Shown here in pieces: positions 3,542 to 60,838 of a stretch of 64,000 nucleotides of DNA (the stretch's first letter is position 1; each line of letters begins with the position of its first letter). The notes under the pieces are model-generated. The model was not told the DNA's origin. It searched no databases and worked only from the letters and a program-made list of their open reading frames with translations. This DNA comes from Flavihumibacter sp. (GTDB lineage: Bacteria; Bacteroidota; Bacteroidia; Chitinophagales; Chitinophagaceae). Location of the stretch: positions 559 to 64,558 of the forward strand of contig JBGSYC010000128.1 of the NCBI GenBank assembly GCA_041751095.1, read 5' to 3'. Made by a program: the position numbers and the translations under genes.

Positions 3542-4921
3542 CTAGTGCCCGGCAACAAAAATGCCGTCTATTTCTTCCAAAGTTTTCCCTTTGGTTTCCA
3601 CTAAAACCTTTAAGATAATTAATAAATTCAGCGCGCTGAAACCTGCAAATATCCAGAATACGCCCGCGGCTCCGACATTTTCGAGCAGCCAGGGGAAAAA
3701 TTGCCCAACTAACCATACCGCTATCCAGACAAATAAAGTACAAATGGTAACTGATTTCACTCTTACATCTGCAGGAAAGATTTCATTAATCAGAATCCAG
3801 GTGATCGGGCCCAGGGAAAGCGCAAAACAAGCGATAAATAAAAGCAGCATAACCAATAACAAAGGGCCAGTCGTGTAATTGAAGTAAAAACAGGTGCCTA
3901 CTACCATCAGGGAGCTGATAATACCTGAAAGGCCTGTAATCAATAACGGCTTACGCCCCCATCTGTCTGAAAGGAATATGGCAACTACGGTAAAAATAAC
4001 ATTAACAGCACCGATGATCACCTGGGCAAATAAAGCATCCGAGCTGTCCAGGCCGGCGGCAGCAAATATTTTGGGCCCATAATAAATAATAGCGTTGATG
4101 CCACTGAATTGCTGGAACACCGCCAGTAATATCCCGATAAGCAGTAAAGGGCGGATTGCCTTACTTAAAACTGTACGTGATGAATGAAGGTTTTTCGCGA
4201 GAGAAGCGCTTATAGCAGTATATTCCTTTTCGGCTTCAGATTTGCCCCTAATGCCCTTAAGGATAGCAAAGGCCCCTGCCGTCTTACCTTTTAATAACAT
4301 CCAACGCGCACTTTCAGGCACCACAAATAATACCAGCATAAACACCAGCGAAGGAATAGCCATCACAAGAAACATGCTCCGCCATATTTCATTGTGCAGC
4401 AGCCATCCCTGAAGAAAACTGTTATTATAGCTCTTAGCAGCAAGGCTCAGTAAAAAGGCGTTTGAAAAATACGCCGATAAAATTCCGATAGTAATAGCCA
4501 GTTGATAGAGGGAAATCATTTTACCTCTGGAATGCGCAGGCGCAAATTCTGCAATATACAGGGGCGAGATGACAGAGGCTACGCCCACTCCTATTCCACC
4601 CACTAACCTGTACCACACCAGCATATTGGCGGAACCTGACCAGGCACAGCCTAAGGCGGATGTCAGGAAAAGTACAGCCGAAACTATTAAGACCTTTTTC
4701 CGGCCGATGGTATCGCTTAGAAAACCGGCTGTTATGACGCCGATAATACTGCCTAGTAGACCGCTGCTGACAAACCAGCCTTCCATCGCTATGCTCATGT
4801 TGAACTGTTTGTTGACCAGTTCGATGGTACCGGATATAACAGCCGTATCAAAACCAAACAATAAACCGCCCAGGGACGCCGCAAAGCAAATAAAGCCGGT
4901 TGTCCGGAAAGCTATCATCAT
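3542..4921 (-). CDS. MFS sugar porter (XylE/GalP-like sugar:H+ symporter)
   Basis: GRKKVLI loop motif, PESARWM, PETKGKTLEEI; about 12 predicted TM segments; 459 aa. Confidence 0.9.
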   Translation of the reverse strand: MMIAFRTTGFICFAASLGGLLFGFDTAVISGTIELVNKQFNMSIAMEGWFVSSGLLGSIIGVITAGFLSDTIGRKKVLIVSAVLFLTSALGCAWSGSANMLVWYRLVGGIGVGVASVISPLYIAEFAPAHSRGKMISLYQLAITIGILSAYFSNAFLLSLAAKSYNNSFLQGWLLHNEIWRSMFLVMAIPSLVFMLVLFVVPESARWMLLKGKTAGAFAILKGIRGKSEAEKEYTAISASLAKNLHSSRTVLSKAIRPLLLIGILLAVFQQFSGINAIIYYGPKIFAAAGLDSSDALFAQVIIGAVNVIFTVVAIFLSDRWGRKPLLITGLSGIISSLMVVGTCFYFNYTTGPLLLVMLLLFIACFALSLGPITWILINEIFPADVRVKSVTICTLFVWIAVWLVGQFFPWLLENVGAAGVFWIFAGFSALNLLIILKVLVETKGKTLEEIDGIFVAGH

Positions 4922-5336: not shown

Positions 5337-7115
5337 TCAGGATTTAGTGCGCACGTAGGCTTTCAGTGTTCCGCATTGCTTATCCTTACTCTCACCACAG
5401 GGGCTGATAAGGTAAGCACCTACCTGCGCAGGCACAATAAATGTTTCCGCATAATGCACGACAAAAGGCATAAACAACCCGTCCGGGCTTTCTACCTGTA
5501 CTTCACGCCCTTCTACCAGGTTAAGTACATTCACTACTCCTCCGGTGTGATGCAAAACCGGTTTTGTAAACCAGTGGCGGCGTGTTTCTATAAAATCGTC
5601 TTCGTGTAGCCCCGTACGTTCTTCCACACAGCCGTCTGTTTCAGCTATCCGCTCTACGCGGTTTAACAGATTCTCTTTGGTCCAGGTGGCTGTACGGCTC
5701 CATTCAATATTTTTTTCTCCGTGATTGATATTGATGGGCCGGGGCCGACCATCCATGCCCATCCGCCCCCAGTCCCATAATTTAAACGTGAAAATATAAG
5801 GAGTGGCGCTCACTTCCAGCACCATGCCATTGATACCGGAACAATGTACAGTACCCGCCGGTATCAGAATATGGTCATGCTTTTTAACCGGCCATTTCTC
5901 TACGTACGCATCTGCATTGAACCGGCCGGTAATTTCTGATTGCCGCAAATCATCCATCATTTGAGACGGTTGAATATCTTCCTTCAGGCCCAGGTATACG
6001 CATGCATCTTCAGCGGCATCGAGCATATAATAACTTTCGGCCTGGGTATAGGGTAATCCAAAATGTTCCCTGATATATTCAGTTAAGGGATGCACCTGCA
6101 AGCTGAGGTTGCCTCCTCCCATTGTGTCCAGAAAGTCGAAGCGGATCGGGAACTCATCACCAAAGCGGGCGTACACAGGGCCACCTAATAATTCCCTGGG
6201 CTGGTAAAACACCAGGTTAATAGCCGGTATCTCGAAACGCAGGTTGCCAAAGCCAAGCATTAAGCTGTTCTCTTCCGGCACACAATCAAAGCCCCAGGCG
6301 TAGTTAATGGCGGACCGGTCAAGGTCGCAGACCTCTTTCAACCATTGCCCTCCCCATGGGCCGGGGTCAAAAAAAGGCACCACCCGGAAAGGTTGTGTCA
6401 CAGCCTGGCGCAGTCCCGACCGCAGGGCTTCGCCACTTACCATAGCGGGTTGTTGAGGGATTGCCGTATCTAACACATAATCCCATTTGCTGATCAGCGT
6501 CTTCTTTAACCGGTCGGCTACCCGCCAGTCTACAAAGTAGGCCCGTTTGTACTGAAGGGCCGCTTCAGTATTTTTATTCTCTATGCCAAGGTTACTTGCT
6601 TCGTCGCGGCGGAAACGCAACTGCCCCTCCCAGCGCGGCATATCGGCATATATCAGTAAATCGGCCTTTGCCAGCAAGGAAGCACCCGTACCATAAATCA
6701 ATACAATCCCTTCTGTGATAGCCTGAATTTTGTCCCGGGTAAGCGCCAGGCTGCTTCTGTCAAAAAAATCGTCAACGTCGAGGCGGGTTAGGTAACCAAA
6801 TATACGGTCGTCGGTTACATCCCGATAAACCATCTGATCAATCTCTGCAGTTGATTTATAAGCATCTGCAGCCAGGTAAATGTGTGCGGGTTGCAGGGCC
6901 TGAGTAAAAGCCCGTACAACTTCTTCCTGGTGCACGCCAATGTAAGATTCTACGGTTATAATTATTTTCCTGAGAGCGAACCGGTACACCTCCTTTTTTA
7001 ATTTAGCTCCGATTGATTGCCAACCCTGCCAATACTCATCATAGCCTGACACCGTGATAAATGGATGCTTATTATAATTTGATGATATTTTATGGCTCAT
7101 GATCTTATGCTTCAA
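5337..7115 (-). CDS. Long class I mannose-6-phosphate-isomerase-like protein with an N-terminal extension of about 240 aa
   Basis: PWGGQW, FPIRFDFLD, LSLQVHP, AESYYM and IPAGTVHC match the type I PMI zinc-site motifs. An alternative start (MSHK) lies at 7100. Confidence 0.75.
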   Translation of the reverse strand: MKHKIMSHKISSNYNKHPFITVSGYDEYWQGWQSIGAKLKKEVYRFALRKIIITVESYIGVHQEEVVRAFTQALQPAHIYLAADAYKSTAEIDQMVYRDVTDDRIFGYLTRLDVDDFFDRSSLALTRDKIQAITEGIVLIYGTGASLLAKADLLIYADMPRWEGQLRFRRDEASNLGIENKNTEAALQYKRAYFVDWRVADRLKKTLISKWDYVLDTAIPQQPAMVSGEALRSGLRQAVTQPFRVVPFFDPGPWGGQWLKEVCDLDRSAINYAWGFDCVPEENSLMLGFGNLRFEIPAINLVFYQPRELLGGPVYARFGDEFPIRFDFLDTMGGGNLSLQVHPLTEYIREHFGLPYTQAESYYMLDAAEDACVYLGLKEDIQPSQMMDDLRQSEITGRFNADAYVEKWPVKKHDHILIPAGTVHCSGINGMVLEVSATPYIFTFKLWDWGRMGMDGRPRPININHGEKNIEWSRTATWTKENLLNRVERIAETDGCVEERTGLHEDDFIETRRHWFTKPVLHHTGGVVNVLNLVEGREVQVESPDGLFMPFVVHYAETFIVPAQVGAYLISPCGESKDKQCGTLKAYVRTKS

Positions 7116-12358: not shown

Positions 12359-13159
12359 TCATTGAAGTTTTGGATTTATATTCACTTCCGTCTGTGGAAT
12401 AGGCCATTGGTAATCCTGCGCCCTGAAATTTTTTGATGTAACGTACCACCTGCTATAGGGGTCGGTGGTTGTTCCCTTTTTTCTCAGGGGCCTGACTGTA
12501 TTTGGAAAAGGAGCACCATAAAAATCGGCTTTCAGCACTTGTCGGCGATTTTCCAGCGTAGCAAGTCCCAGTAACGGATACCTTCGAATGCTGTTTCAAT
12601 TCTGCGTTCTTTACGTATGATCTCACGCAAAAGCGCAGTTTTGGTCTGGGTTATTGGAGGCATATTTACAGATGCCCTTCCTCTTACCTTATTAATCGTT
12701 AAATTAAGCATACCCTGGTCAATGGCATGTCCGGCTTCCAGCCAGGCTTCGAGGTAACTTAAAAGTACTTCTTCATACCTAATAATCGGGAGGTTACCGC
12801 CATAGTTATTAAGATTACCCGAATATCCTTCATCAAGATATTTTTTGATTCCGTACCCCGTTTGCGTTGTCTGTTTTCCTGCTCCCAACTGGTCAGGTGC
12901 CAGTGTTGAATCAGGGTGAGTAATATATCTACCTCTGAATGATTGACCGTTAAAAAGGATGTTATATTTCAACCGCGCGTCCCTGTTTTTTGTCGGATCT
13001 TTTGGATCATACAAAGGACTGGTAAAAGAAAATGGTGTACCGTTTTCCCGCAAAAGAGTTTAGGGCAATGCCAGTAAAGAGGAGGATCGCTAAATTAGTC
13101 AGCAGCCGACAGCCAGTTGTTGATAGACGGTAGTTGAGGCTTTTGATGTGCGTAATCAT
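12359..13159 (-). pseudogene. SusD/RagB-family gene with an internal deletion and frameshifts
   Basis: Three pieces on the minus strand: a signal-peptide-like start MITHIKSLNYRLSTTGCRLLTNLAILLFTGIALNS (ATG 13159); a C-terminal SusD body in another frame (track ORF 12532-13053, ...IRYWDLLRWK); and, after a further frameshift, the tail VLKADFYGAPFP...QDYQWPIPQTEVNINPKLQ*. Confidence 0.7.
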
Positions 13160-13531: not shown

Positions 13532-14062
13532 CTTCCATTTCGCGGCCGTAAGCGCAGTATATATGAAGGCGGTATTCGGGTGCCATTTATTGTGCGGTGG
13601 CCCGGGCACGTACCCGCGAACCGCATCGACGATCAATCCGTTGTAAGCGGTGTAGATTTACTGCCTACTTTAAGCAAATGGGCGAACCAAGCCGTGCCAG
13701 AAAATCATGCCCTGGATGGTGAAGACATCAGTGATATTTTATTAGGGAAAACCCGACCGCGCACCAGACCCCTGATGTGGGAAGGCCGCATGCCAGTAAT
13801 TGGACCAGTCATTAATCAAAATCCAACCCTGGCTATCCGTGACAAAGAGTGGAAATTGCTCATGAACCCCGATCGCAGCCGCATCGAATTATACCATATA
13901 ACCAAAGACCCTACAGAGGTAAACAATTTGGCCCTGCAACATCCCGATATAGTAAAACGCTTGTCTGAGCAATTACTGACTTGGAAAAAGTCAGTACCAG
14001 GCTCCGTAAGAGATGGAGCTGGAATGATGCAGTACAATTGGCCAGGAAAAGAAACTAAGTAA
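13532..14062 (+). pseudogene. Sulfatase C-terminal fragment
   Basis: In-frame reading from 13532 gives LPFRGRKRSIYEGGIRVPFIVRWPGHVP..., the conserved sulfatase K-x-x-x-YEGGIRVP block, plus the C-terminal domain. No N-terminal catalytic half is present, and a stop codon sits at 13529-13531. Confidence 0.75.
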
Positions 14063-22516: not shown

Positions 22517-23653
22517 TCACTTACTCAGGCGTATAATTTTATATAGTTCCTCTGCAAAAAGTTTAGCACCTGGAATTGTTAAGTGCACAGGGTCTGTTTC
22601 TTTTCCCGGACGTAAATTTTTTAGCGAAGTAATTTTTTCTCCCGCCACAAAGAATAACTTTTTATCCTTTTTTTGAAATTCGGTGACAATCTTAATAATG
22701 CTGGCGCTAAACTGGGCCGGTGTAGTATGCGTTTTAGGGTTTTCGGTTTTCTTGGTGTATAACAAACTAATGCAAAATATTTTAGATGCTGGCTGATTAA
22801 TCCTTAAAGTCGTTAGGAACTCCCGGTATTCATTCTCAAATCGTTCAACTGATTTATTGGCCCCGTTAAAATCATTATACCCGATAAGCAACGTTATAAC
22901 ATCAGCTTTCGGCAGATCGCGAACCATTTTTGCAATAGGCAAAGCGATTCTGGAACCACCGATCCCCAGGTTGTATAGTTCCAAATTTAATTTTTGAGAT
23001 ACAATAAAAGGGTACGTTAGATACGACGCCCCATCCTGGCCCCTTCCATGTGTAATGCTATCGCCAAGGCCGATATACACTTTTTTTCGGGCAGGTTGGT
23101 AAGTACTAAGTTCACTATGGTCATCCAATTCTAATCTTGTTAACGATAAATTGGAAAAGCTGGGCAGGATAATTTCATAAACACATTCTTTATCAACCCG
23201 TAATGAGTCAAGAATAATATCTACTGACTGATTTAAAGCGACTGCATTGCATGGAATTTCTTTATAAAAAACACCATCGCGGATAACTCCAAAATATCCT
23301 TTTTCCTTTAATCCCGGCTCTTGCGTAAAAGTCAAATGAATTTTAGAACTTTTGGTTTTAAACTGAATCTTTATTCCGCTGGTAGAGCGGGCCGTTTCAC
23401 CCGAAAATATTCTTTCTTCCGGTGGCAAACTTATTAGGGAATCAGAAAAATGTTTATCGAGCAGAAAACCGGAAAAACGCGTATAAAAGAGTTTAGATGG
23501 CGATCGGTAGATATAACCGGCTCCGGTTACATGAATATTCTTATTGTCCAGTGGTATTGTTTTAGCAACGGCAGCAAAAGAAAACGCAATAAAGCATCCA
23601 ATTAATAAGGTTTGATATTTGCTGATCCTGCCCGCTTTCATTGTGGTTGTCAT
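22517..23653 (-). CDS. SGNH/GDSL hydrolase (carbohydrate esterase-like) with N-terminal beta-sandwich domain
   Basis: Block I IGLGDSITHG, block III LLIGYNDF, block V DPVHLT. Start taken at MTTTMKAGR (23653) because the longer track ORF overlaps the GH31 3' end. Confidence 0.8.
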   Translation of the reverse strand: MTTTMKAGRISKYQTLLIGCFIAFSFAAVAKTIPLDNKNIHVTGAGYIYRSPSKLFYTRFSGFLLDKHFSDSLISLPPEERIFSGETARSTSGIKIQFKTKSSKIHLTFTQEPGLKEKGYFGVIRDGVFYKEIPCNAVALNQSVDIILDSLRVDKECVYEIILPSFSNLSLTRLELDDHSELSTYQPARKKVYIGLGDSITHGRGQDGASYLTYPFIVSQKLNLELYNLGIGGSRIALPIAKMVRDLPKADVITLLIGYNDFNGANKSVERFENEYREFLTTLRINQPASKIFCISLLYTKKTENPKTHTTPAQFSASIIKIVTEFQKKDKKLFFVAGEKITSLKNLRPGKETDPVHLTIPGAKLFAEELYKIIRLSK

Positions 23654-23666
23654 GTTGTGAGCAAAT

Positions 23667-26600
23667 CTATTGTTTTGATGTATACAGGGCAAGCGTAGTT
23701 CCGGCACGCAGATAGACCGGCATCTGGCCCGGGCGAGCATTGACTTTTTTAGTAGTGCCTCCCTCAATTGTCTCACCAGTCCAGAAATTTTTCCACTTCC
23801 CTTGAGGAAATGTCACCTTTCTTGTGTTGCCTTCCTGCAGAACCGGTGCAACCAGAATATCCGTTCCAAGCAGGTACTGATCGTCAATGGCGGCCATGTT
23901 CGGCTTGTCAGGATAGGCCAGCATCATAGAACGGATCATCGGCAAGCCTGTCCGGTTGCTCAACTCTGCCTGGCTGAAAAGATAGCTGGCAAGGCCCATA
24001 CGCACTTTTGCATAGTGTCTGTACAGCTTTACGGCTTCATCTCCGTAATGCCAGGGCTCACGGGGTTCTGTACCATGCATACGCATAAGCGGACTGAAGG
24101 TGCTGAATTCCAGCCACCGAACGTATACTTCCGGATCAGGCTGACCAAAAAATCCACCCATATCGCTGCTCCAGATAGAGAATCCACAAGAGGAAAGATT
24201 TAAGGCTCCGGTAAGGGCCGCTCTTAAGCCGGTAAAATTAGCCCTGTGGTCACCGGCGAATGAGGCAACCCAGCGCTGGCTTCCTGCCGACCCCGCCCTT
24301 CCGAAAAGAATATAATCAGCGCCGAGGCGTTCACTAAATGTCTGAGCAAATGTCCTGTGGTAATCATACGCATAAAAATTATGCATCTCTTTACCTGTCC
24401 GGCCGTCATAAAATACGGCATCTTCCGGCACTTCATCTCCAAAATCTATCATACTACCGGCAATGCCTAAGTCAATTCTCCGTTTCCAAAAGGCGCGTGA
24501 TAATTGCATCGCGTTTGGATGACTGAAGTCTACGTACTCCTTGTGTTTGGATAAGAAAGGTTTTCCATTTGCATGACGCAGCACCGGAAGCAGGCTGTCT
24601 GCAATGCCGGGAAGCAGCCGACGTTGCTGATCCATACTGATAGAAGAGTTCCACCATGACAAAGGCCGTATACCTGTTCCTTTTAATCCTTTATGTAAGT
24701 CGGGGTCGTCGCTTGCCGCGCCTTCGGCATACACAGCGGAATGGACAATGCCCAGACTGTCCATTTTTCGTACGGCCGCAAGTACCGCCTTTGCAGGCTT
24801 GCCCGGACTTTCTTCGTTCCAGTTCTTGCCTGTTCTGCCTAACCAGGGTTTGAATGCCCAGAGCGGTGGCACGATCGGCTTACCAGTAAGACTGGTGTAG
24901 TTCTGCAAGGCGCGGTCGGGCGTTTGAGGCCAGAAATAAAAATCCAGTACGGGGCCAAAGGCGGTCAGAGTTGCGATACCGGGTTCACTCTGGCCCAGGT
25001 CAGCGCGAAGGCGGTATGAGGAATTGAAGAACAGGCTGTAGCCGGATGTCTGAAAAAACGGTACAGGTTTATACGTCTGATTGCGAAGGCCGATGGTAAG
25101 TCCGGGATAATCGTCCATTCCCCAGAGCGTAATGGTCTGGCCATTCAGATTAGCCGTATTGTACCTTTCTCCTGATCCGCGGACAAGGATTGCGGGGCCA
25201 AGCGGTTGCGTTAACTGAACAGCTTTTAATCGTGCCGAATCATCAAACCAAAAACCAAATGAGCGTTTATTTAATACAAATTGCCCCGGGTTAGATTGTA
25301 TCGTTACCTGCCAGTCATCGCCTGTTTTTATGAAAATATTCAAACCGGATACTGAATAAACCGGCTGCCGATCTATGGTTAATTCTTTAATTTTTTCATT
25401 AGTGGCCGGATTAAAGTAACCGGTTTCTTCTCCATGAAGGCGGACTCCGCCGCCTAAAGGAAACTTCATAGTCAGTTGATAAGGCTGTTCATTAATTATA
25501 CCTTCCATCAATAACGCGTCCGCTGCAAGCTTTACATTTTTCAAAGTAAATGACTGCCAACGCTTACTTTGAATATTTCCCGGCGATCCGTCTGCATACC
25601 AGTTACGGGATACGACATCCAGTGTTTTCAGATAAACGTCAAGCGAGTCGCAGGCCTTTTGAACGTTATCAGCCAGCAGTACCTGATTAACTTTACGGCG
25701 GATATCGAAGGGTTGTATTGAGTAAGGGATGGGCCCGCCTGCTTCTTTGCGAAAGTTGAAACCTTCAAGCGTAAGCAAATCACACCAGCGTTGTGTGAGA
25801 TGAACCCGGTCGGCAAATGTTTCAGCGGTTGTAGCCCTTTTGAGCGTTTGCTGCATTTTCCATATAGCGGCTTTCTCTTTTTGTGCTGGATAAACCAACT
25901 TAACGGGCCGTTGCCAGCGTAAGGTGCCGGATGGGAGGCTGGTAATTGTTTGCCCGGAAGTAATCACTGCCGGTGCGGCCCCAAAAGATGTTTCCATAAA
26001 CAGATCGGGAGCCGGTCGGTCATCGAAATCTACGGCTACCGGACTGGTACGCTCCGAATCACGCCACCTGGTTCTGCTAACGATGAGGCCAAAGGGTTTA
26101 ACCGGTTTCCCTTCAATTGCAGACCATGGTAATTTCAGCAATACGGTCCAGGCACTTTTTTCAGCTTTCATTTCAACTGTAAACCGGGTAACAAACCGGG
26201 CACTGTGATCTTTAATCACATCGCCACCACCTTCGGGGTGCTTAACCTGCGTTAGTTGTCCGCGGATAACACCTGCCGACTGCCCATCTTTGGATACGGA
26301 GAACTGGTAAAAATGGCCACTCTCCATTGCAGAACGGACATATACATCAACCCTGTCCTGAAAATAGGTGTCCAGTAAAAATGAGTTATCAATATGATCC
26401 TTCAGCTTTAGCTTCCGGAAGTGGCCCGGATGACTCATATTCGGTTCCAGGCAATAAAACAGTATGTACAACGAATCGTTGGTCCAGGCAAATCTTGTTT
26501 GGGTAGGCGTTACGGTTCCATTTTCACCACCTGCTTTGTAGAACCGGTTCAGTACCGGCGAGGTTGTCCAACCGCCTAAAGGTGTATTAACGGTTGGTAA

Positions 26601-26741
26601 GGTTTTAACCTGCGGGCCAAGTGTGATGGCCGTTACACCGTAGGTTAACGGCGATTGAGCGGAAACAAGTTGCCATGCTGATAACAATGTGCAACTAAAC
26701 AATACAAGCCAAAATAAACAATAAGACTTCAGCGTATTCAT
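23667..26741 (-). CDS. Glycoside hydrolase family 31 (YicI-like alpha-xylosidase/alpha-glucosidase) with N-terminal CBM9/DOMON-like domain
   Basis: Signal peptide present. IDFGDEVPED resembles the YicI nucleophile block KTDFGE. Also FAGDHRANF and IWSSDMGGF. 1024 aa. Confidence 0.8.
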   Translation of the reverse strand: MNTLKSYCLFWLVLFSCTLLSAWQLVSAQSPLTYGVTAITLGPQVKTLPTVNTPLGGWTTSPVLNRFYKAGGENGTVTPTQTRFAWTNDSLYILFYCLEPNMSHPGHFRKLKLKDHIDNSFLLDTYFQDRVDVYVRSAMESGHFYQFSVSKDGQSAGVIRGQLTQVKHPEGGGDVIKDHSARFVTRFTVEMKAEKSAWTVLLKLPWSAIEGKPVKPFGLIVSRTRWRDSERTSPVAVDFDDRPAPDLFMETSFGAAPAVITSGQTITSLPSGTLRWQRPVKLVYPAQKEKAAIWKMQQTLKRATTAETFADRVHLTQRWCDLLTLEGFNFRKEAGGPIPYSIQPFDIRRKVNQVLLADNVQKACDSLDVYLKTLDVVSRNWYADGSPGNIQSKRWQSFTLKNVKLAADALLMEGIINEQPYQLTMKFPLGGGVRLHGEETGYFNPATNEKIKELTIDRQPVYSVSGLNIFIKTGDDWQVTIQSNPGQFVLNKRSFGFWFDDSARLKAVQLTQPLGPAILVRGSGERYNTANLNGQTITLWGMDDYPGLTIGLRNQTYKPVPFFQTSGYSLFFNSSYRLRADLGQSEPGIATLTAFGPVLDFYFWPQTPDRALQNYTSLTGKPIVPPLWAFKPWLGRTGKNWNEESPGKPAKAVLAAVRKMDSLGIVHSAVYAEGAASDDPDLHKGLKGTGIRPLSWWNSSISMDQQRRLLPGIADSLLPVLRHANGKPFLSKHKEYVDFSHPNAMQLSRAFWKRRIDLGIAGSMIDFGDEVPEDAVFYDGRTGKEMHNFYAYDYHRTFAQTFSERLGADYILFGRAGSAGSQRWVASFAGDHRANFTGLRAALTGALNLSSCGFSIWSSDMGGFFGQPDPEVYVRWLEFSTFSPLMRMHGTEPREPWHYGDEAVKLYRHYAKVRMGLASYLFSQAELSNRTGLPMIRSMMLAYPDKPNMAAIDDQYLLGTDILVAPVLQEGNTRKVTFPQGKWKNFWTGETIEGGTTKKVNARPGQMPVYLRAGTTLALYTSKQ

Positions 26742-41840: not shown

Positions 41841-42444
41841 TACTTAATTTCCGCAAAAGTGACCTGAAGATTGTTCAGGAAATACGTGATCCGGGAGAAT
41901 TAACAATTCAATGTTTTTAAAGCAATCATTTCATAACAATGAGTAAATGATTTGGAAACATAACATACCATCAATTAATTCAAAAAGGGATTATACGAGT
42001 AATAAATTGCGGATAATTAATTTGCTGCGGCTACAATTTAGAAACCGCTTGTTTATTTTTTATTATTATGCCGGAATAGAAAGTGCCGCCGCTATACAAG
42101 TGACATAACTTTGCGACGAAAAAGATGATAACGAAAGTTTTCAGGTAAATAAAAGACTTAAAGTGAAGATGTATCTCTGAGCACAAATAAGCGTAAATTG
42201 AACAAAACTCAGAAACTGTAGGTTATACGGGAAGTAGAACAAAACCGGTTAACCGGACGGTACGAAAGCATAGTCTGAGACCCTTGTAGTGACATATAAC
42301 TTCCATTCTATTGGTCTCCCCATATGGAAGACATTCGTTCTCTGATTGTTGTCTTGTCATAATTTTCCTGGCAGGCAACCAATACTGCAAAAACTCGTTA
42401 TATTCATATCCCATAACTATCACTTCATACCAAAAACCACTGCT

Positions 42445-43551
42445 ATGTTGAAAAAAATTAGTTACACACTTTGTTTTTTAGTCCTGTTCGTTTTTGTTGG
42501 TAACACCATGCTGTTTAACAGTTCCCAGCCTCCGCAGGGGTATACCGGTGCTACAGGACAATACTGTACCAGTTGTCATGGTAGCTTTGCTTTAAACTCT
42601 GTTGGCGGCAGTGTAACTGCAACCGGACTTCCGACAGGTAGTTATGTGCAAGGTCAGGCATATAATTTTTCCATTACCATATCTCACGGGGCAGTAAGAA
42701 ACAGGTGGGGCTTTTCCATAGCTGCCCGTAATGCTGCCGGTCAGCCTGTAGGAACATTTTCTGGCACTCATCCTAATGCAGCACCTAACGGCAATGAGCT
42801 TAGCCACAACAATGCTGTTAGCTTCAGCGGTACCTCTTACACCTACAATAATTTAACCTGGACTGCACCAGCTTCGCCTGCCCCTGCAGATAACCCGGTA
42901 AGCTTTTATTACGTAGGAAATGCAGCAAACGGAGACTTTGGCGCCGGGTCTGATTATATTTATTCAGCTTCAACGGTGGTTGCTTTGCCTATTATACTTT
43001 CTGCCTTCACTGCCGATGTAAGAGGAACATCTGTCAACTTAAAGTGGGAAACCTCGAGTGAAAACAACAGCAGCCATTTTATTATTGAGAAAAGTGCAGA
43101 TAACCAGCATTTTTATGAGTTAGCTAAAGTGAATGCATCGGGCAGTTCTTCATCGAAGCGTAATTATGCATTTACTGATGATAAACCGGCATACTATGAA
43201 GGAGCGACTTTTTACCGTTTATCTTTGGTTGATAAAGACGGTTCAAAAAAATATTCAAACGTGTTGAATGTATCTATCAAAGCGATAAGCACATTTATTA
43301 AGAAGCTATACCCAAACCCAGTCAGGAAAGGGAATAATATGCAGGTTGAAATAATTAGTAACAGGCAACAGCGTGTGTCAATTCAACTAATAAATAATAG
43401 TGGAAATAGGGTGCAGCATACAGCATCTTCTCTTCGGAAAGGAAATAACACGATCAATCTTTCTATAAATAAGAGTGTTGCTGCCGGCATGTACGCTTTA
43501 TTGGTGCAGATGGAAGATGGGGTACAACAAATTCCGGTTTTAATACAATAA
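42445..43551 (+). CDS. T9SS-sorted secreted protein with an N-terminal domain carrying one CxxCH motif
   Basis: Signal peptide from ATG 42445; GYTGATGQYCTSCHG; pre-CTD module LPIILSAFTADVRGTSVNLKWETSSENNSSHFIIEKS; T9SS type-A CTD (LYPNPV...). Confidence 0.7.
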   Translation: MLKKISYTLCFLVLFVFVGNTMLFNSSQPPQGYTGATGQYCTSCHGSFALNSVGGSVTATGLPTGSYVQGQAYNFSITISHGAVRNRWGFSIAARNAAGQPVGTFSGTHPNAAPNGNELSHNNAVSFSGTSYTYNNLTWTAPASPAPADNPVSFYYVGNAANGDFGAGSDYIYSASTVVALPIILSAFTADVRGTSVNLKWETSSENNSSHFIIEKSADNQHFYELAKVNASGSSSSKRNYAFTDDKPAYYEGATFYRLSLVDKDGSKKYSNVLNVSIKAISTFIKKLYPNPVRKGNNMQVEIISNRQQRVSIQLINNSGNRVQHTASSLRKGNNTINLSINKSVAAGMYALLVQMEDGVQQIPVLIQ

Positions 43552-43973: not shown

Positions 43974-44378
43974 ATGATTAAATTTCAGAAGAGCTATTTC
44001 ATAATTGCAGTATCATTATTTGTTACCGAGGTTCTCATTGCCTTATACCTTCATGACGAGATTATCAGACCATATTTTGGAGATGTTCTTGTAGTAATTC
44101 TGCTTTATTGTTTTGTTAAAAGCTTCCTGAACATACCAGTCGCAATTGCCGCTTTTTCCGTTCTTCTCTTTTCTTACCTGATAGAAACATTGCAATACTT
44201 TCATATCATTCATTACCTGGGCTTAGACCGTTCAGCATTAGCCAGTACTATCATGGGAAATTATTTTACCTGGGTTGATATTCTGGCATATACATTGGGA
44301 ATCTCAATCGTGTTATGTATAGAATGGCTAATGGTAACTGGTAAGAAACTGCGATCGTTAACAAACACACGACAATAA
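43974..44378 (+). CDS. DUF2809-like small membrane protein
   Basis: IRPYFGDVLVVILLY and GNYFTWVDILAYTLG patterns; 134 aa, 4 TM. Confidence 0.5.
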   Translation: MIKFQKSYFIIAVSLFVTEVLIALYLHDEIIRPYFGDVLVVILLYCFVKSFLNIPVAIAAFSVLLFSYLIETLQYFHIIHYLGLDRSALASTIMGNYFTWVDILAYTLGISIVLCIEWLMVTGKKLRSLTNTRQ

Positions 44379-44383
44379 AAAGC

Positions 44384-45145
44384 ATGGCATTTTTTGTAAG
44401 CAATGATTCAATAGTTCGGAAAATCTGGGGAAAGGGCGACACTATCCTGTTGATTTTTGCCGGTGCTTCAGCTGAGTTTGCCTTAAATAGGGCAGTGGAC
44501 TGGCTTTACTTTACCGGGCGTCTTCCCGCCGACCCGCTGGGCAGGCTGTTCTCCACAGTTTGTTATGCCAGGCAAATTGTATTTTCAGAATATCATGAAG
44601 CGCTCAATGCTATTGACAAGATTACTGCTATTCATAAGTCCGTAGAAGACAGTCGTGGTGCTCAGATACCCGGCTGGGCTTACCGGGATGTTTTGTTTAT
44701 GCTGATCGATTATTCTATCCGGTCTTTCGAAGTAATGGAAAGAAAACTGACGCAGGAGGAAAAAGCCGAAACTTTTGATGTGTTTTTGCGCGTTGGTATA
44801 AGGATGGGGATTAGCGGTTTGCCACATAATTACCAGGCCTGGATAAATATGCGGAGCGAACATTTAGAGAAAGATATTATTTGCAGCGATTTTACGATTG
44901 ATTTGTGTAAACAATACAGAAAGCATCTTGGATGGCTCAGATATCAGTTGCTGAAGCAGTCTCAGGTGCTGGTTGTGCCTGAAAGAGTTAGTACGCTACT
45001 TTCTTTGGGCACAATTCCTTTGCTAACACCTGTTCTGCAAGTGTATAAACTGACGCGGTTCTTTCAGGTGCACGGGTTGCTCAGGAATGCCATACTTCCT
45101 CCCGGTTATAAGAAACAAATAGCGAAATTAGATACCCGTAATTGA
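44384..45145 (+). CDS. MpaB/DUF2236-like oxygenase family protein (tentative)
   Basis: Size and N-terminal pattern only; weak recall-based assignment. Confidence 0.4.
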   Translation: MAFFVSNDSIVRKIWGKGDTILLIFAGASAEFALNRAVDWLYFTGRLPADPLGRLFSTVCYARQIVFSEYHEALNAIDKITAIHKSVEDSRGAQIPGWAYRDVLFMLIDYSIRSFEVMERKLTQEEKAETFDVFLRVGIRMGISGLPHNYQAWINMRSEHLEKDIICSDFTIDLCKQYRKHLGWLRYQLLKQSQVLVVPERVSTLLSLGTIPLLTPVLQVYKLTRFFQVHGLLRNAILPPGYKKQIAKLDTRN

Positions 45146-45470
45146 GCAGGTCCGCGTGGAGGAGTTACTGACAAAGTGAAAATGGTTGATTAAAAAAAGG
45201 ACACCGAACCATCAATTGATGTGAAAAGGATATCACTAAAAATGAAGTTGAGATAAATAAGGGTGTTCTCATTTTCAAAGCGGAATTTACCCTTATGAAA
45301 TCTAATTAGCCTCATTTAAAATTATTCATACACCCAAAAAACGGTTCAATAGAGTAATTTTACCAGAATGTTCATGAGCGATCAGATTGGCAATTACACA
45401 TAAATTCCAAAAATTAAGCGCCTGAGGCAATACAATCTCCTATTCACTCTTAGTGTGAAAACCAGTTTTT

Positions 45471-46586
45471 ATGAAAGACATTTCCGAATTCTTTTCCGGC
45501 CTTTTTGATACGGACCGTTGGCCGCCGAGGTGGGAGTGTGGATACTGGTCTGAATTTCATGGCTGGCTATATATTGTCAGTGATCTGATGATCTGGCTGG
45601 CATATTTTTTAATTCCTCTCATTATCATCAATTATTTCAAAACTAAAAAAAGTTCGATCAGGTTTCATGCAGTGTATCTGTTATTTGCAGCCTTTATACT
45701 GCTGTGTGGTACCACTCATTTTCTTGACGCAGTAATGTTTTGGGTACCAGCGTATCGCTTTAATGCTTTAATCAGGTTTCTAACGGGTATAGTAAGTCTG
45801 GTTACTGTTTATCAACTGGTGCTTATCTTACCAGGCATGATCAAGTTGAGAACCGGCCTGGAGCTCGAAAGCGAAATTGCGCGCCGCGAACAGGTAGAAC
45901 GCGATCTTGCCGAGGCGAATAGCCGGTTAAACGCCTTTGCTTCTGTAGCGTCTCATGATCTGCAGGAACCTCTTAGAAAAATTAAGCTTTTCACGGAAAT
46001 GGTCTACGAGAAAAACCAGGCTTTATATGATGATGCCAGTAAATTGAATACTGGGAAAATTATTCAATCCGCGTCCCGGATGCAGGGTCTTATCAAAAGT
46101 GTGTTAACACTTTCTTCCATGGATAATAATATAGAAGTTAAAAATGTCGACACGAACGAAGTGGTGCGTTTAGCTCTTGAAACACTTGAGTTGCGCATTC
46201 ACGAGAAAAAGGCTGCCATTCATACCAACGAATTGCCTGAAGTAATGGGCAACTTATCATACCTGACACAATTGTTTACTAACCTGGTTAATAATGCCCT
46301 TAAGTTCAATAAAAGGACTCCGGAAATTGAAATAACAGGTAAAAAAATGGATGGCGTTGTTGTTATTATGGTCAGTGACAATGGAATTGGAATGGGTACT
46401 GAATCTTATGATAAAATTTTTCAGGCATTTCAACGAGTGCACCCTCAATCCGCATATGAAGGCACCGGCATTGGCCTTGCGATCTGTAAACAAATAATGG
46501 ATTTACACAGAGGAAGTATAAAGGTAAACAGCACTCCGGACGTCGGTACTACATTCACCCTTACATTCCCCTCTCCTGATAATTGA
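45471..46586 (+). CDS. Sensor histidine kinase: ETR1-like ethylene-binding transmembrane domain (3 TM) + coiled coil + HisKA + HATPase_c
   Basis: HisKA H-box ASHDLQEPLRKI; N-box NLVNNALKF; G-boxes DNGIGM and GTGIGLAI. The N-terminal 130 aa align with ETR1 helices 1-3 (SD..I..AYF.IPL, LCGxTH, LT..VS...LV.I.P....V/L-K/R-T). Confidence 0.85.
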   Translation: MKDISEFFSGLFDTDRWPPRWECGYWSEFHGWLYIVSDLMIWLAYFLIPLIIINYFKTKKSSIRFHAVYLLFAAFILLCGTTHFLDAVMFWVPAYRFNALIRFLTGIVSLVTVYQLVLILPGMIKLRTGLELESEIARREQVERDLAEANSRLNAFASVASHDLQEPLRKIKLFTEMVYEKNQALYDDASKLNTGKIIQSASRMQGLIKSVLTLSSMDNNIEVKNVDTNEVVRLALETLELRIHEKKAAIHTNELPEVMGNLSYLTQLFTNLVNNALKFNKRTPEIEITGKKMDGVVVIMVSDNGIGMGTESYDKIFQAFQRVHPQSAYEGTGIGLAICKQIMDLHRGSIKVNSTPDVGTTFTLTFPSPDN

Positions 46587-59590: not shown

Positions 59591-60838
59591 ATGAAAAATA
59601 AGTTTTCGCTTTTAATTGCAACGGGTTTAATGGCCTTATGTATCGATAATGTAAGTTTCGCACAGTTGAGACCGCCCAATCTAAAGGCTGCCGCAGACTT
59701 TGTACTTTTCACCGGTTCGGGGCAGGTAAACAACACCGGAACTTCGCAAATCACAGGAAAGATCGGTACCAACGGCGGTGGCACTATCACCGGTTTCACG
59801 TCTGTGCCAGGCCAGCAGGAAAGTGCAAACGCACTCACAGCGCAGGCTGCAACTGACCTCGAAACTGCTTATAACTACCTGTTTAATGCCGCTCCAACTG
59901 CGCCTCCCCACGGGACGGTATTCGGTAATAATGAGACCATTACGCCTGGTGTATATTCAACCACCGCAGCATCTTCTATCCAGGGAAATCTTATCCTTGA
60001 TGCACAAGGCGATCCGGATGCAGTATTTATTTTTAAAATAGGAGGCGCCTTTACCGCCAATCCATCTTCTCAAATCTCTTTACTCGGAAACGCAACCGCA
60101 TGTAACATATTCTGGGCAGTGGAAGGCGGTGAAATCATCATTGGTACGCAATGTGAAATGAAGGGAACTTTTATTGCACATCCGGGCGCATTTTCGATGG
60201 CCGCATCCAGTACGCTGATTGGGAGAGGACTGTCTTCTGCGGGAGCCATCGGTGTTAACGAGGTTACCGCATCTTTGCCCACTAACTGCACTACAGTGCT
60301 TCCTGTTGTTTTGATTTCCTTTACGGCCACCTGTAATCAACCCTACGTAGAATTAAAATGGGCTACCGCTGCCGAGACAAACAACAGCTTTTTCACAGTA
60401 GAGCGCAGCGTTGAAGCGCTGACATGGCAGGTGGTTGGATCAGTTGATGGCGCACGGGGTACCTCCCGCGTCAATAAATACGCGCTTACCGATAAATTCC
60501 CGGGCAAAGGGACTTCCTTTTACAGATTAAAGCAAACCGATCTGGATGGAAAATACAAATACTGGGACGTTATAGCTGCAAAAAGTTGTGGCACAAAATC
60601 TGAGGAGAGGTTGTCCATATATCCAAATCCCTCTTCAGGCAAATTTAACCTGTTACTGACAAGTGAGCCGGGCCGGGTCACTTCCATTGAAATATTCGAC
60701 GCGCTCGGACACAAAGTGGAGGGTTCAACCGGCTTTCAGCCCATGTTCGATCTTTCCGGTAAAGCACCCGGAGTTTATCACGTCCGGATACATACAAATG
60801 CAGGAATAATAAACCGGAAAATAATCCTGAAAAGATGA
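59591..60838 (+). CDS. Ice-binding-like (DUF3494) protein with T9SS C-terminal sorting domain
   Basis: AADFVLFTGSGQVNNTGTSQITGKIGTNGGGTITGF, TAQAATDLETAYNYL, TPGVY, ILDAQGDPDAVFIFKIGG, ATACNIFWAVEG; CTD SIYPNPSSGKFNL. Confidence 0.8.
   Translation: MKNKFSLLIATGLMALCIDNVSFAQLRPPNLKAAADFVLFTGSGQVNNTGTSQITGKIGTNGGGTITGFTSVPGQQESANALTAQAATDLETAYNYLFNAAPTAPPHGTVFGNNETITPGVYSTTAASSIQGNLILDAQGDPDAVFIFKIGGAFTANPSSQISLLGNATACNIFWAVEGGEIIIGTQCEMKGTFIAHPGAFSMAASSTLIGRGLSSAGAIGVNEVTASLPTNCTTVLPVVLISFTATCNQPYVELKWATAAETNNSFFTVERSVEALTWQVVGSVDGARGTSRVNKYALTDKFPGKGTSFYRLKQTDLDGKYKYWDVIAAKSCGTKSEERLSIYPNPSSGKFNLLLTSEPGRVTSIEIFDALGHKVEGSTGFQPMFDLSGKAPGVYHVRIHTNAGIINRKIILKR

Follow-up and report, generated by a model that had tools for sequence, protein, structure and literature searches.

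A minimal orphan histidine kinase with an ETR1-type sensor domain as a candidate ethylene receptor in Flavihumibacter sp.

The stretch of DNA analyzed here (the window) comprises 64,000 nucleotides of contig JBGSYC010000128.1 (positions 559 to 64,558, forward strand) in assembly GCA_041751095.1 of Flavihumibacter sp., a member of the Chitinophagaceae within the Bacteroidota. At 45471..46586 on the plus strand, an ATG-started open reading frame (ORF), with its stop codon inside these coordinates, encodes a 371-amino-acid membrane sensor histidine kinase. The gene was delimited from the ORF list, its Pfam domains, and its start position, as M1 coincides with the start of 41 orthologues in the orthologue alignment. 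A Pfam scan gave the domain order ETR1_N, HisKA, and HATPase_c. A preliminary description of the locus had proposed that the first ~130 residues (45471-45870, residues 1-133) form an ethylene-binding domain of the plant ETR1 type, and this was borne out by Pfam, BLASTP, and two alignments; the three peptide stretches that it quoted are present in the translation. In the reading that we consider probable, the protein is a minimal, orphan, bacterial ethylene-receptor-like histidine kinase that would sense ethylene or small alkenes in a Cu(I)-dependent manner and signal to a partner receiver encoded elsewhere.

The sensor domain occupies residues 30-126 (45558..45848, plus strand, as are all kinase features below). 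Its match to the Pfam family ETR1_N (PF25487, "Ethylene receptor 1-like, N-terminal domain") reached 101 bits against a cut-off of 27 (E 4.5e-29) and covered profile positions 2-97 of 97, that is, from end to end. With the same model, the scores were 116 bits for Brassicaceae ETR1, 124 bits for one stand-alone Bacteroidota domain, 132 bits for AzoEtr1 of Azospirillum brasilense Sp7, and 140 bits for a cyanobacterial (Acaryochloris) receptor-like kinase. In BLASTP searches, residues 1-140 were 38% identical to Brassicaceae ETR1 over 97 residues (E 4e-15), and the kinase was 35% identical to AzoEtr1 over 124 residues (E 3e-24). The plant ETR1 references used here were database sequences, of which P0388 is the first exon of Brassicaceae ETR1, and AzoEtr1 was represented by a 525-amino-acid ORF on the A. 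brasilense Sp7 chromid, a gene verified by the exact cloning primer in PMC11819568.

As judged from these comparisons, the transmembrane region of the kinase is a genuine relative of the ETR1-type ethylene-binding domain. Hydrophobic helices can align spuriously, and nothing beyond that speaks for the alternative in which the three helices are a mere membrane anchor, resembling ETR1 in composition and sensing nothing. Against this alternative stand a Pfam score 74 bits over the cut-off with the whole profile covered, a set of polar or otherwise special in-membrane residues common to plants and bacteria (D38, which is E in 33/120 orthologues, C79, H83, P49, P121, T82, S109, and T112), and 4189 representative protein clusters that match the domain at E <= 1e-10. 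Furthermore, the profile alignment places C79 and H83 on ETR1 C65 and H69, as had been anticipated, with a score far above that of a generic three-helix transmembrane match. The anchor explanation is highly improbable and was effectively refuted by the Pfam match and the two alignments.

Seven residues of AtETR1 are required for ethylene binding (PMC11819568 and PMC6682694, both citing Wang et al. 2006). Three hydropathy peaks, centered at about residues 41-48, 70-83, and 108-117, mark the membrane helices of the kinase. Helix 1 spans approximately residues 34-56 (45570..45638; hydropathy, alignments, and a helix at 28-58 in the AlphaFold2 model) and bears D38, Y45, I48, and P49. Helix 2, at about residues 68-90 (45672..45740; hydropathy, conservation, and a modeled helix at 66-89), bears I76, C79, and H83, whereas helix 3, at about residues 102-124 (45774..45842; hydropathy, the plant alignment, and a modeled helix at 96-123), contains R102, S109, T112, L116, and P121. 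The required AtETR1 residues, which we take to be D25, Y32, I35, P36, I62, C65, and H69, correspond to D38, Y45, I48, P49, I76, C79, and H83, and all seven columns are invariant in a MAFFT alignment of four plant and two Bacteroidota sequences. Six of these pairs had been named before and all of them hold; the seventh, I62 with I76, was not among them and is also kept. The C79 codon is TGT at 45705..45707, as had been reported, and that of H83 is CAT at 45717..45719, both read from the translation. By homology, C79 and H83 are the presumed Cu(I) ligands.

A second, independent alignment was made with a hidden Markov model (HMM) built from orthologues, to which 500 sequences were aligned. The D/Y/I/P/I/C/H residues of 110 plant receptors fell on the same seven columns. 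Among 120 orthologues in this alignment, Y45, P49, I76, C79, and H83 are invariant; at position 38, 87 have D and 33 have E, and at position 48, 112 have I and 8 have M. R102 occupies the column of plant K91, where 106/110 plant sequences have K and most bacteria either R or K. Further columns common with plants in the MAFFT alignment are F72, F75, L78, G80, T82, S109, T112, L116, and P121, whose ETR1 counterparts by constant offset are F58, F61, L64, G66, T68, S98, T101, L105, and P110.

Upstream of the first membrane helix, residues 1-33 (45471..45569) form a predicted periplasmic N-terminal extension, so assigned from charge and hydropathy, with a net charge of -3. Within it, residues 17-32 (45519..45566) carry the Bacteroidota-type motif W-P-[PA]-R-W-x-C23-G-x-W-x-x-F-H30-G-W, defined from 42 orthologues and a comparison of phyla. 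W17, P18, W21, C23, G24, W26, G31, and W32 are invariant in the 42 orthologues, and the single Cys, C23, is kept in 118/120, 120/120, and 140/147 members of three homologue sets. Comparing loci across phyla (L002, L007, L008, L012-L016, L020, L037, L050, and L052), we found two bacterial versions of the extension: WP[PA]RWxCGxW..FHGW in Bacteroidota and [FY][ML]PHGxCYLWxP in Cyanobacteria, Acidobacteria, and Azospirillum. Both have a P-x-x-x-C-x-x-W core, which plants lack. The cyanobacterial receptors have an N-terminal stretch of ~30 residues with one Cys, which might stand in for the pair of disulfide cysteines found in plants (PMC6682694). Because the kinase has a ~33-residue, single-Cys extension like that of the cyanobacterial receptors, its sensor domain can be classed from sequence as the bacterial subtype of the ETR1 domain, nearer to bacterial domains than to plant ETR1 and in a Bacteroidota-specific version. 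In the Acaryochloris marina S15 plasmid NZ_CP064925.1 (L008, 4001-4399), the tblastn match of the sensor begins 51 nt before the annotated coding sequence start at 4052; the annotated start, just downstream of which MPHGHCYLW is found, may remove part of the N-terminal extension.

The topology agrees with that of ETR1. Four positive charges and none of the opposite sign are present in loop 1 (KTKKSSIRFHA), and the N-terminal 33 residues are net negative, so an N-out/C-in orientation is assigned. An AlphaFold2 monomer model computed from 42 orthologues (mean predicted local distance difference test score [pLDDT] of 74, high in the kinase core) contains helices at 28-58, 66-89, and 96-123, a continuous helix at 129-182 that includes H162, another at 188-216, and then the alpha/beta catalytic domain. 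The gap between helix 3 and HisKA is only ~30 residues long and is predicted to be one helix; the cytoplasmic linker at residues 129-152 (45855..45926), with no Pfam domain between, would run without a break into the helix of the dimerization and histidine phosphotransfer (DHp) domain. With so short and continuous a helix, there is no space for a GAF or PAS domain, and no Pfam match to either was found in the kinase at E <= 1, so that the GAF domain typical of plant receptors is absent. The earlier statement that the binding domain is fused directly to a HisKA/HATPase core without a GAF domain was thus upheld by Pfam. There is also no C-terminal receiver of the ETR1 type, as HATPase_c ends at residue 368 of 371.

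The kinase core itself is intact in its motifs. HisKA (DHp) covers residues 153-219 (45927..46127; Pfam, invariance, and motif), with the phospho-acceptor H162 (codon 45954-45956) in the H-box SHDLQEPLR, and HATPase_c covers residues 264-368 (46260..46574; Pfam and motifs), with the N box at 271-279, the G1 box DNGIG at 303-307, the F box at 317-322, and the G2 box GTGIGL at 331-336. H162 within SHDLQEPLR, N271/N275, DNGIG, F317, and GTGIGL are invariant in the 42 orthologues. The best solved relative of the core in a search of the PDB was 8f71_A (E 4.2e-33). The names of orthologues in Joint Genome Institute (JGI) genomes, the presence of bacteriophytochrome kinase modules among the best PDB matches, and the H-box sequence indicate that this core is of the Cph1 (phytochrome-associated) type. 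Every testable feature of the family was found in the kinase; only the plant-specific GAF and receiver domains are missing.

Among bacteria, Synechocystis and Azospirillum have been shown to possess ethylene receptors (PMC11819568, PMC6682694), and ethylene binding has been described at the whole-cell level in Geitlerinema (PMC6682694). AzoEtr1 resembles the kinase in having an N-terminal ETR1_N domain on a HisKA/HATPase core, in lacking a GAF domain, and in keeping the seven binding residues; the match between the two even includes part of the N-terminal extension with its single Cys. In contrast to the kinase, AzoEtr1 has 525 amino acids, a PAS domain that separates its binding domain from the kinase core, an N-terminal motif of the LPHGxCxFW type instead of WPPRWxCGxW, and an adjacent response regulator, and its host is a proteobacterium that colonizes plant roots. 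Residues 1-130 of AzoEtr1 bind ethylene saturably (PMC11819568); ethylene binding is thus demonstrated for that protein, whereas for the kinase it is predicted.

SynEtr1 (slr1212, Synechocystis) and GeiEtr1/2 (Geitlerinema) are like the kinase in their bacterial-type domain with a one-Cys extension of ~30 residues, and their signaling needs histidine kinase activity and phosphotransfer to a response regulator (PMC6682694). The cyanobacterial receptors carry PAS, GAF, or cyanobacteriochrome domains, and some a receiver, with which they integrate light; the kinase has none of these. Additionally, SynEtr1 adjoins the response regulators slr1213/1214, whereas the kinase gene is an orphan. Arabidopsis ETR1 and ERS1 have in common with the kinase three transmembrane helices, the same topology, and a downstream histidine kinase core. 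However, the plant receptors carry a GAF domain (PF01590), and ETR1 also a receiver, neither of which is found in the kinase, and they have two N-terminal Cys (C4 and C6) and no Trp-rich motif, in contrast to the longer, single-Cys extension of the kinase. Plant ethylene signaling runs via CTR1 and EIN2 rather than through a phosphorelay.

The kinase is not rare and, from its matches, belongs to a very large, catalogued bacterial family. When residues 1-140 were searched against 1.84 billion representative proteins, 7312 clusters matched at E <= 0.001, besides the 4189 at the stricter threshold given above, and the ETR1_N domain stood N-terminally in proteins of 101 to >1400 residues. The best 120 matches of the whole protein all have 367-404 residues, the architecture ETR1_N + HisKA + HATPase_c, and 54-93% identity; names among them include Chitinophagaceae, Segetibacter, Flavisolibacter, Ferruginibacter, Runella slithyformis, Spirosomataceae, and one labeled Verrucomicrobia. 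More than 120 protein clusters have this ~370-amino-acid architecture. The preliminary description had also expected routine annotation to be generic. This is true of the NCBI names of the relatives ("sensor histidine kinase," "ATP-binding protein," and "GHKL domain-containing protein") but not of UniRef, which names them [quoted passage not shown] nor of Pfam, in which the domain is precomputed for all of them.

The nearest relatives of the domain alone are stand-alone ETR1_N proteins of ~155-180 amino acids, annotated as "hypothetical protein" in many Bacteroidota, including marine genera; we found them in Flavipsychrobacter, Reichenbachiella, Aquiflexum, Maribacter, Lunatibacter, Ekhidna, Gramella, and Algoriphagus. 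They have 50-69% domain identity and the same WPPRWxCGxW...FHGW motif but, unlike the kinase, lack a kinase or any other output domain. The relatives come from Bacteroidota of soil, of fresh water, and of the sea, and the plant-hormone role in soil or rhizosphere that the preliminary description envisaged is therefore speculative. In plants, the receptors also have a weaker affinity for other olefins, 1-methylcyclopropene, and carbon monoxide. Together with the wide distribution of the clade, which has no evident plant link, and with the clade-specific N-terminal cap and the D38/E38 variation, which leave room for altered selectivity, this binding of other molecules counts for a Cu(I) sensor of some other small pi-acceptor (an alkene, an alkyne, carbon monoxide, or an isocyanide), for which ethylene would be at best a surrogate. 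We consider such a sensor unlikely, since all seven ETR1 ethylene-binding residues are kept and the tested bacterial domains with these residues bind ethylene (SynEtr1, AzoEtr1, and Geitlerinema whole cells).

A further view of the same distribution is that the ~370-amino-acid proteins form a distinct, phylum-wide clade of orphan sensors in which the N-terminal cap is a second metal- or ligand-binding element and the signal is something other than plant ethylene. That signal would be, for example, copper or redox state, another gas, or ethylene of abiotic or microbial origin in water and soil; alternatively, within this view, ethylene sensing may be general in free-living Bacteroidota and unrelated to plants. 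We regard the distinct-clade view as doubtful.

The genes around the kinase are of little help in choosing a signal. A 325-bp intergenic gap (45146..45470, plus strand), which follows the ORF at 44384-45145, lies 5' of the kinase and presumably holds its own promoter; a scan of this gap for the sigma-70 consensus is uninformative for Bacteroidota. The downstream neighbor is convergent and encodes a DUF7133/HEAT/cytochrome c protein, and other genes of the window (GC content, 43%) include SusC/SusD pairs and proteins with tails for the type IX secretion system (T9SS). Taken with the names of the closest homologues, these features point to Bacteroidota and probably to Chitinophagales. Just upstream, at 43974-45145 (+), the genes for a membrane protein of the DUF2809 family and for an oxygenase of the MpaB/Lcp type (rubber-oxygenase-like) lie 5 bp apart. 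The proximity of an alkene-cleaving oxygenase family to a putative alkene sensor is suggestive, but the pair is absent beside the orthologues examined. A conserved neighborhood was considered as a clue to function and rejected, as the DUF2809, MpaB/Lcp, and DUF7133 genes are all missing beside the orthologues of Runella slithyformis and two JGI genomes. None of the window neighbors recurs at the five orthologous loci L002 (R. slithyformis), L005 and L006 (JGI genomes), and L009 and L010 (metagenome-assembled genomes [MAGs]), and because of this absence we regard them as chance neighbors.

This comparison of loci also bears on the idea that the Cys/His site senses the availability or toxicity of Cu(I), or redox state, rather than a gas, with the kinase regulating metal or envelope homeostasis. 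In favor of this idea, homology makes the binding site one for Cu(I), the invariant C23/H30/Trp motif in the periplasm could provide another element that handles metal, and a review recounts the hypothesis that ethylene perception arose from ancient copper handling, although without further support (PMC10452086). However, no copper resistance or transport gene adjoins the kinase in the window or at the five orthologous loci. Moreover, the non-liganding pocket residues Y45, I48, P49, and I76 are as conserved as the metal ligands, and the retention of such ethylene-pocket residues is not expected of a pure metal sensor. A copper or redox sensor is, in our judgment, decidedly unlikely.

The kinase is an orphan, as are its closest orthologues. 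The statement in the preliminary description that the window holds no response regulator was confirmed in three ways: a hidden regulator in the 64-kb window was sought and rejected with phmmer, using the CheY, PhoB, and NarL receivers; an HMM built from 134 receiver domains of the fetched loci gave no match there; and Pfam scans of 41 window ORFs of >=120 amino acids, the kinase included, detected no receiver domain. The survey that it had suggested, for orthologues and a cognate regulator, yielded many orthologues but no receiver near the five orthologous loci. By contrast, two more distant proteins of the same architecture (L011, 55% identity, and L012, 44%) adjoin a single-domain receiver. 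Longer kinases with the ethylene-binding domain have an adjacent receiver in Terrimonas, Mucilaginibacter, Dyadobacter, Fulvivirga, Algoriphagus, and a Chitinophagaceae MAG (L034). Receivers directly downstream of such kinases are single-domain proteins of ~140 amino acids, several of them Rcp1-like, and in A. brasilense the receiver gene overlaps the AzoEtr1 stop codon. The receivers beside the L015, L020, L035, L050, and L052 kinases are 47-90% identical to one another across Bacteroidota and Acidobacteria and carry at the C-terminus a common, Rcp1-like motif, LGLYW..N, pointing to a conserved family of partners. The partner of the kinase would then be a stand-alone receiver encoded elsewhere in the genome.

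Under the preferred reading of a minimal orphan ethylene-receptor-like kinase, homology with ETR1, SynEtr1, and AzoEtr1 leads us to expect that the protein forms a homodimer. Cu(I) would be held by C79 and H83 of helix 2 in a pocket lined by I76 of the same helix and by four residues of helix 1 (D38, Y45, I48, and P49), and this copper would be the site at which ethylene, or an unsaturated molecule of similarly small size, is bound within the membrane. As no GAF or PAS domain intervenes, the resulting change in helix 3 would be relayed along one unbroken helix (~129-182) to the part of DHp that bears H162 and thereby alter autophosphorylation by the intact catalytic domain. The phosphate would then be transferred to a receiver of the single-domain (CheY/Rcp1-like) kind whose gene lies elsewhere in the genome. 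The analysis establishes the family, the conserved residues, the topology, the order of the domains, the intact kinase motifs, and the orphan status, whereas the binding of copper and ethylene, the direction in which activity is regulated, and the partner are what we infer in this scheme.

Several points weigh against this reading. In the AlphaFold2 monomer, confidence in the transmembrane region is low (pLDDT, about 50-70), and neither sequence nor profile searches found a structure of the domain in the PDB, which leaves none for comparison. The adjoining genes, not being conserved, give no functional hint, and our literature search found no work on members of the ethylene receptor family in Bacteroidota. 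The marine and freshwater relatives speak against a role directed specifically at plants. Metal or ligand chemistry could be altered by the N-terminal W/C/H motif, which is invariant and has no plant counterpart. Finally, ethylene affinities within the Bacteroidota clade may differ, because a quarter of the orthologues have E at position 38 and, according to PMC11971883, the ETR1 D25N change lowers affinity 100-fold.

If the preferred reading is true, the perception of ethylene or small alkenes at a copper site of the ETR1 type would be common among the Bacteroidota, a phylum dominant in soil, rhizosphere, freshwater, and marine habitats, whereas it has been demonstrated so far only in one cyanobacterium and one proteobacterium. 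The architecture of the kinase, in which the binding domain is linked by one helix to the phospho-acceptor helix, is the simplest that we have seen. This simplicity makes it an attractive minimal model for the control of a kinase by a ligand within the membrane and for a first experimental structure of the domain; as the smallest natural fusions of binding domain and kinase, the minimal Bacteroidota proteins would be the simplest system for both domain structure and signaling. The value of the observation is incremental, and the kinase is a candidate rather than a discovery, since published work already considers ethylene receptors in bacteria of several phyla and Pfam already recognizes the domain.

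Some features elsewhere in the window were also recorded; a search for rRNA and other Rfam families in the window gave no match. The ORF at 12532-13053 (-) aligns with no more than positions 58-239 of the SusD_RagB profile, which has 297 positions, and that at 13580-14062 (+) has only a C-terminal sulfatase piece (SGSH_C); both look like gene remnants between two polysaccharide utilization clusters. A 592-amino-acid ORF with no Pfam match (5337-7115, minus strand) lies inside a sugar utilization cluster composed of a ROK kinase, a cupin-type glucose-6-phosphate isomerase, a mannose-6-phosphate isomerase-like cupin, a major facilitator superfamily (MFS) sugar transporter, a GH127 protein, and a GntR-type regulator with a periplasmic-binding-protein-like domain. 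Two secreted proteins, at 59591-60838 (+) and 42346-43551 (+), have T9SS C-terminal sorting domains; an ice-binding-like domain is present in one of them, and the other matches the Reeler domain weakly. Finally, the GDSL-lipase ORF at 22517-23776 (-), listed with a GTG start, overlaps the GH31 ORF at 23667-26741 (-) by 110 bp, and its start codon is probably further downstream than the listed GTG.

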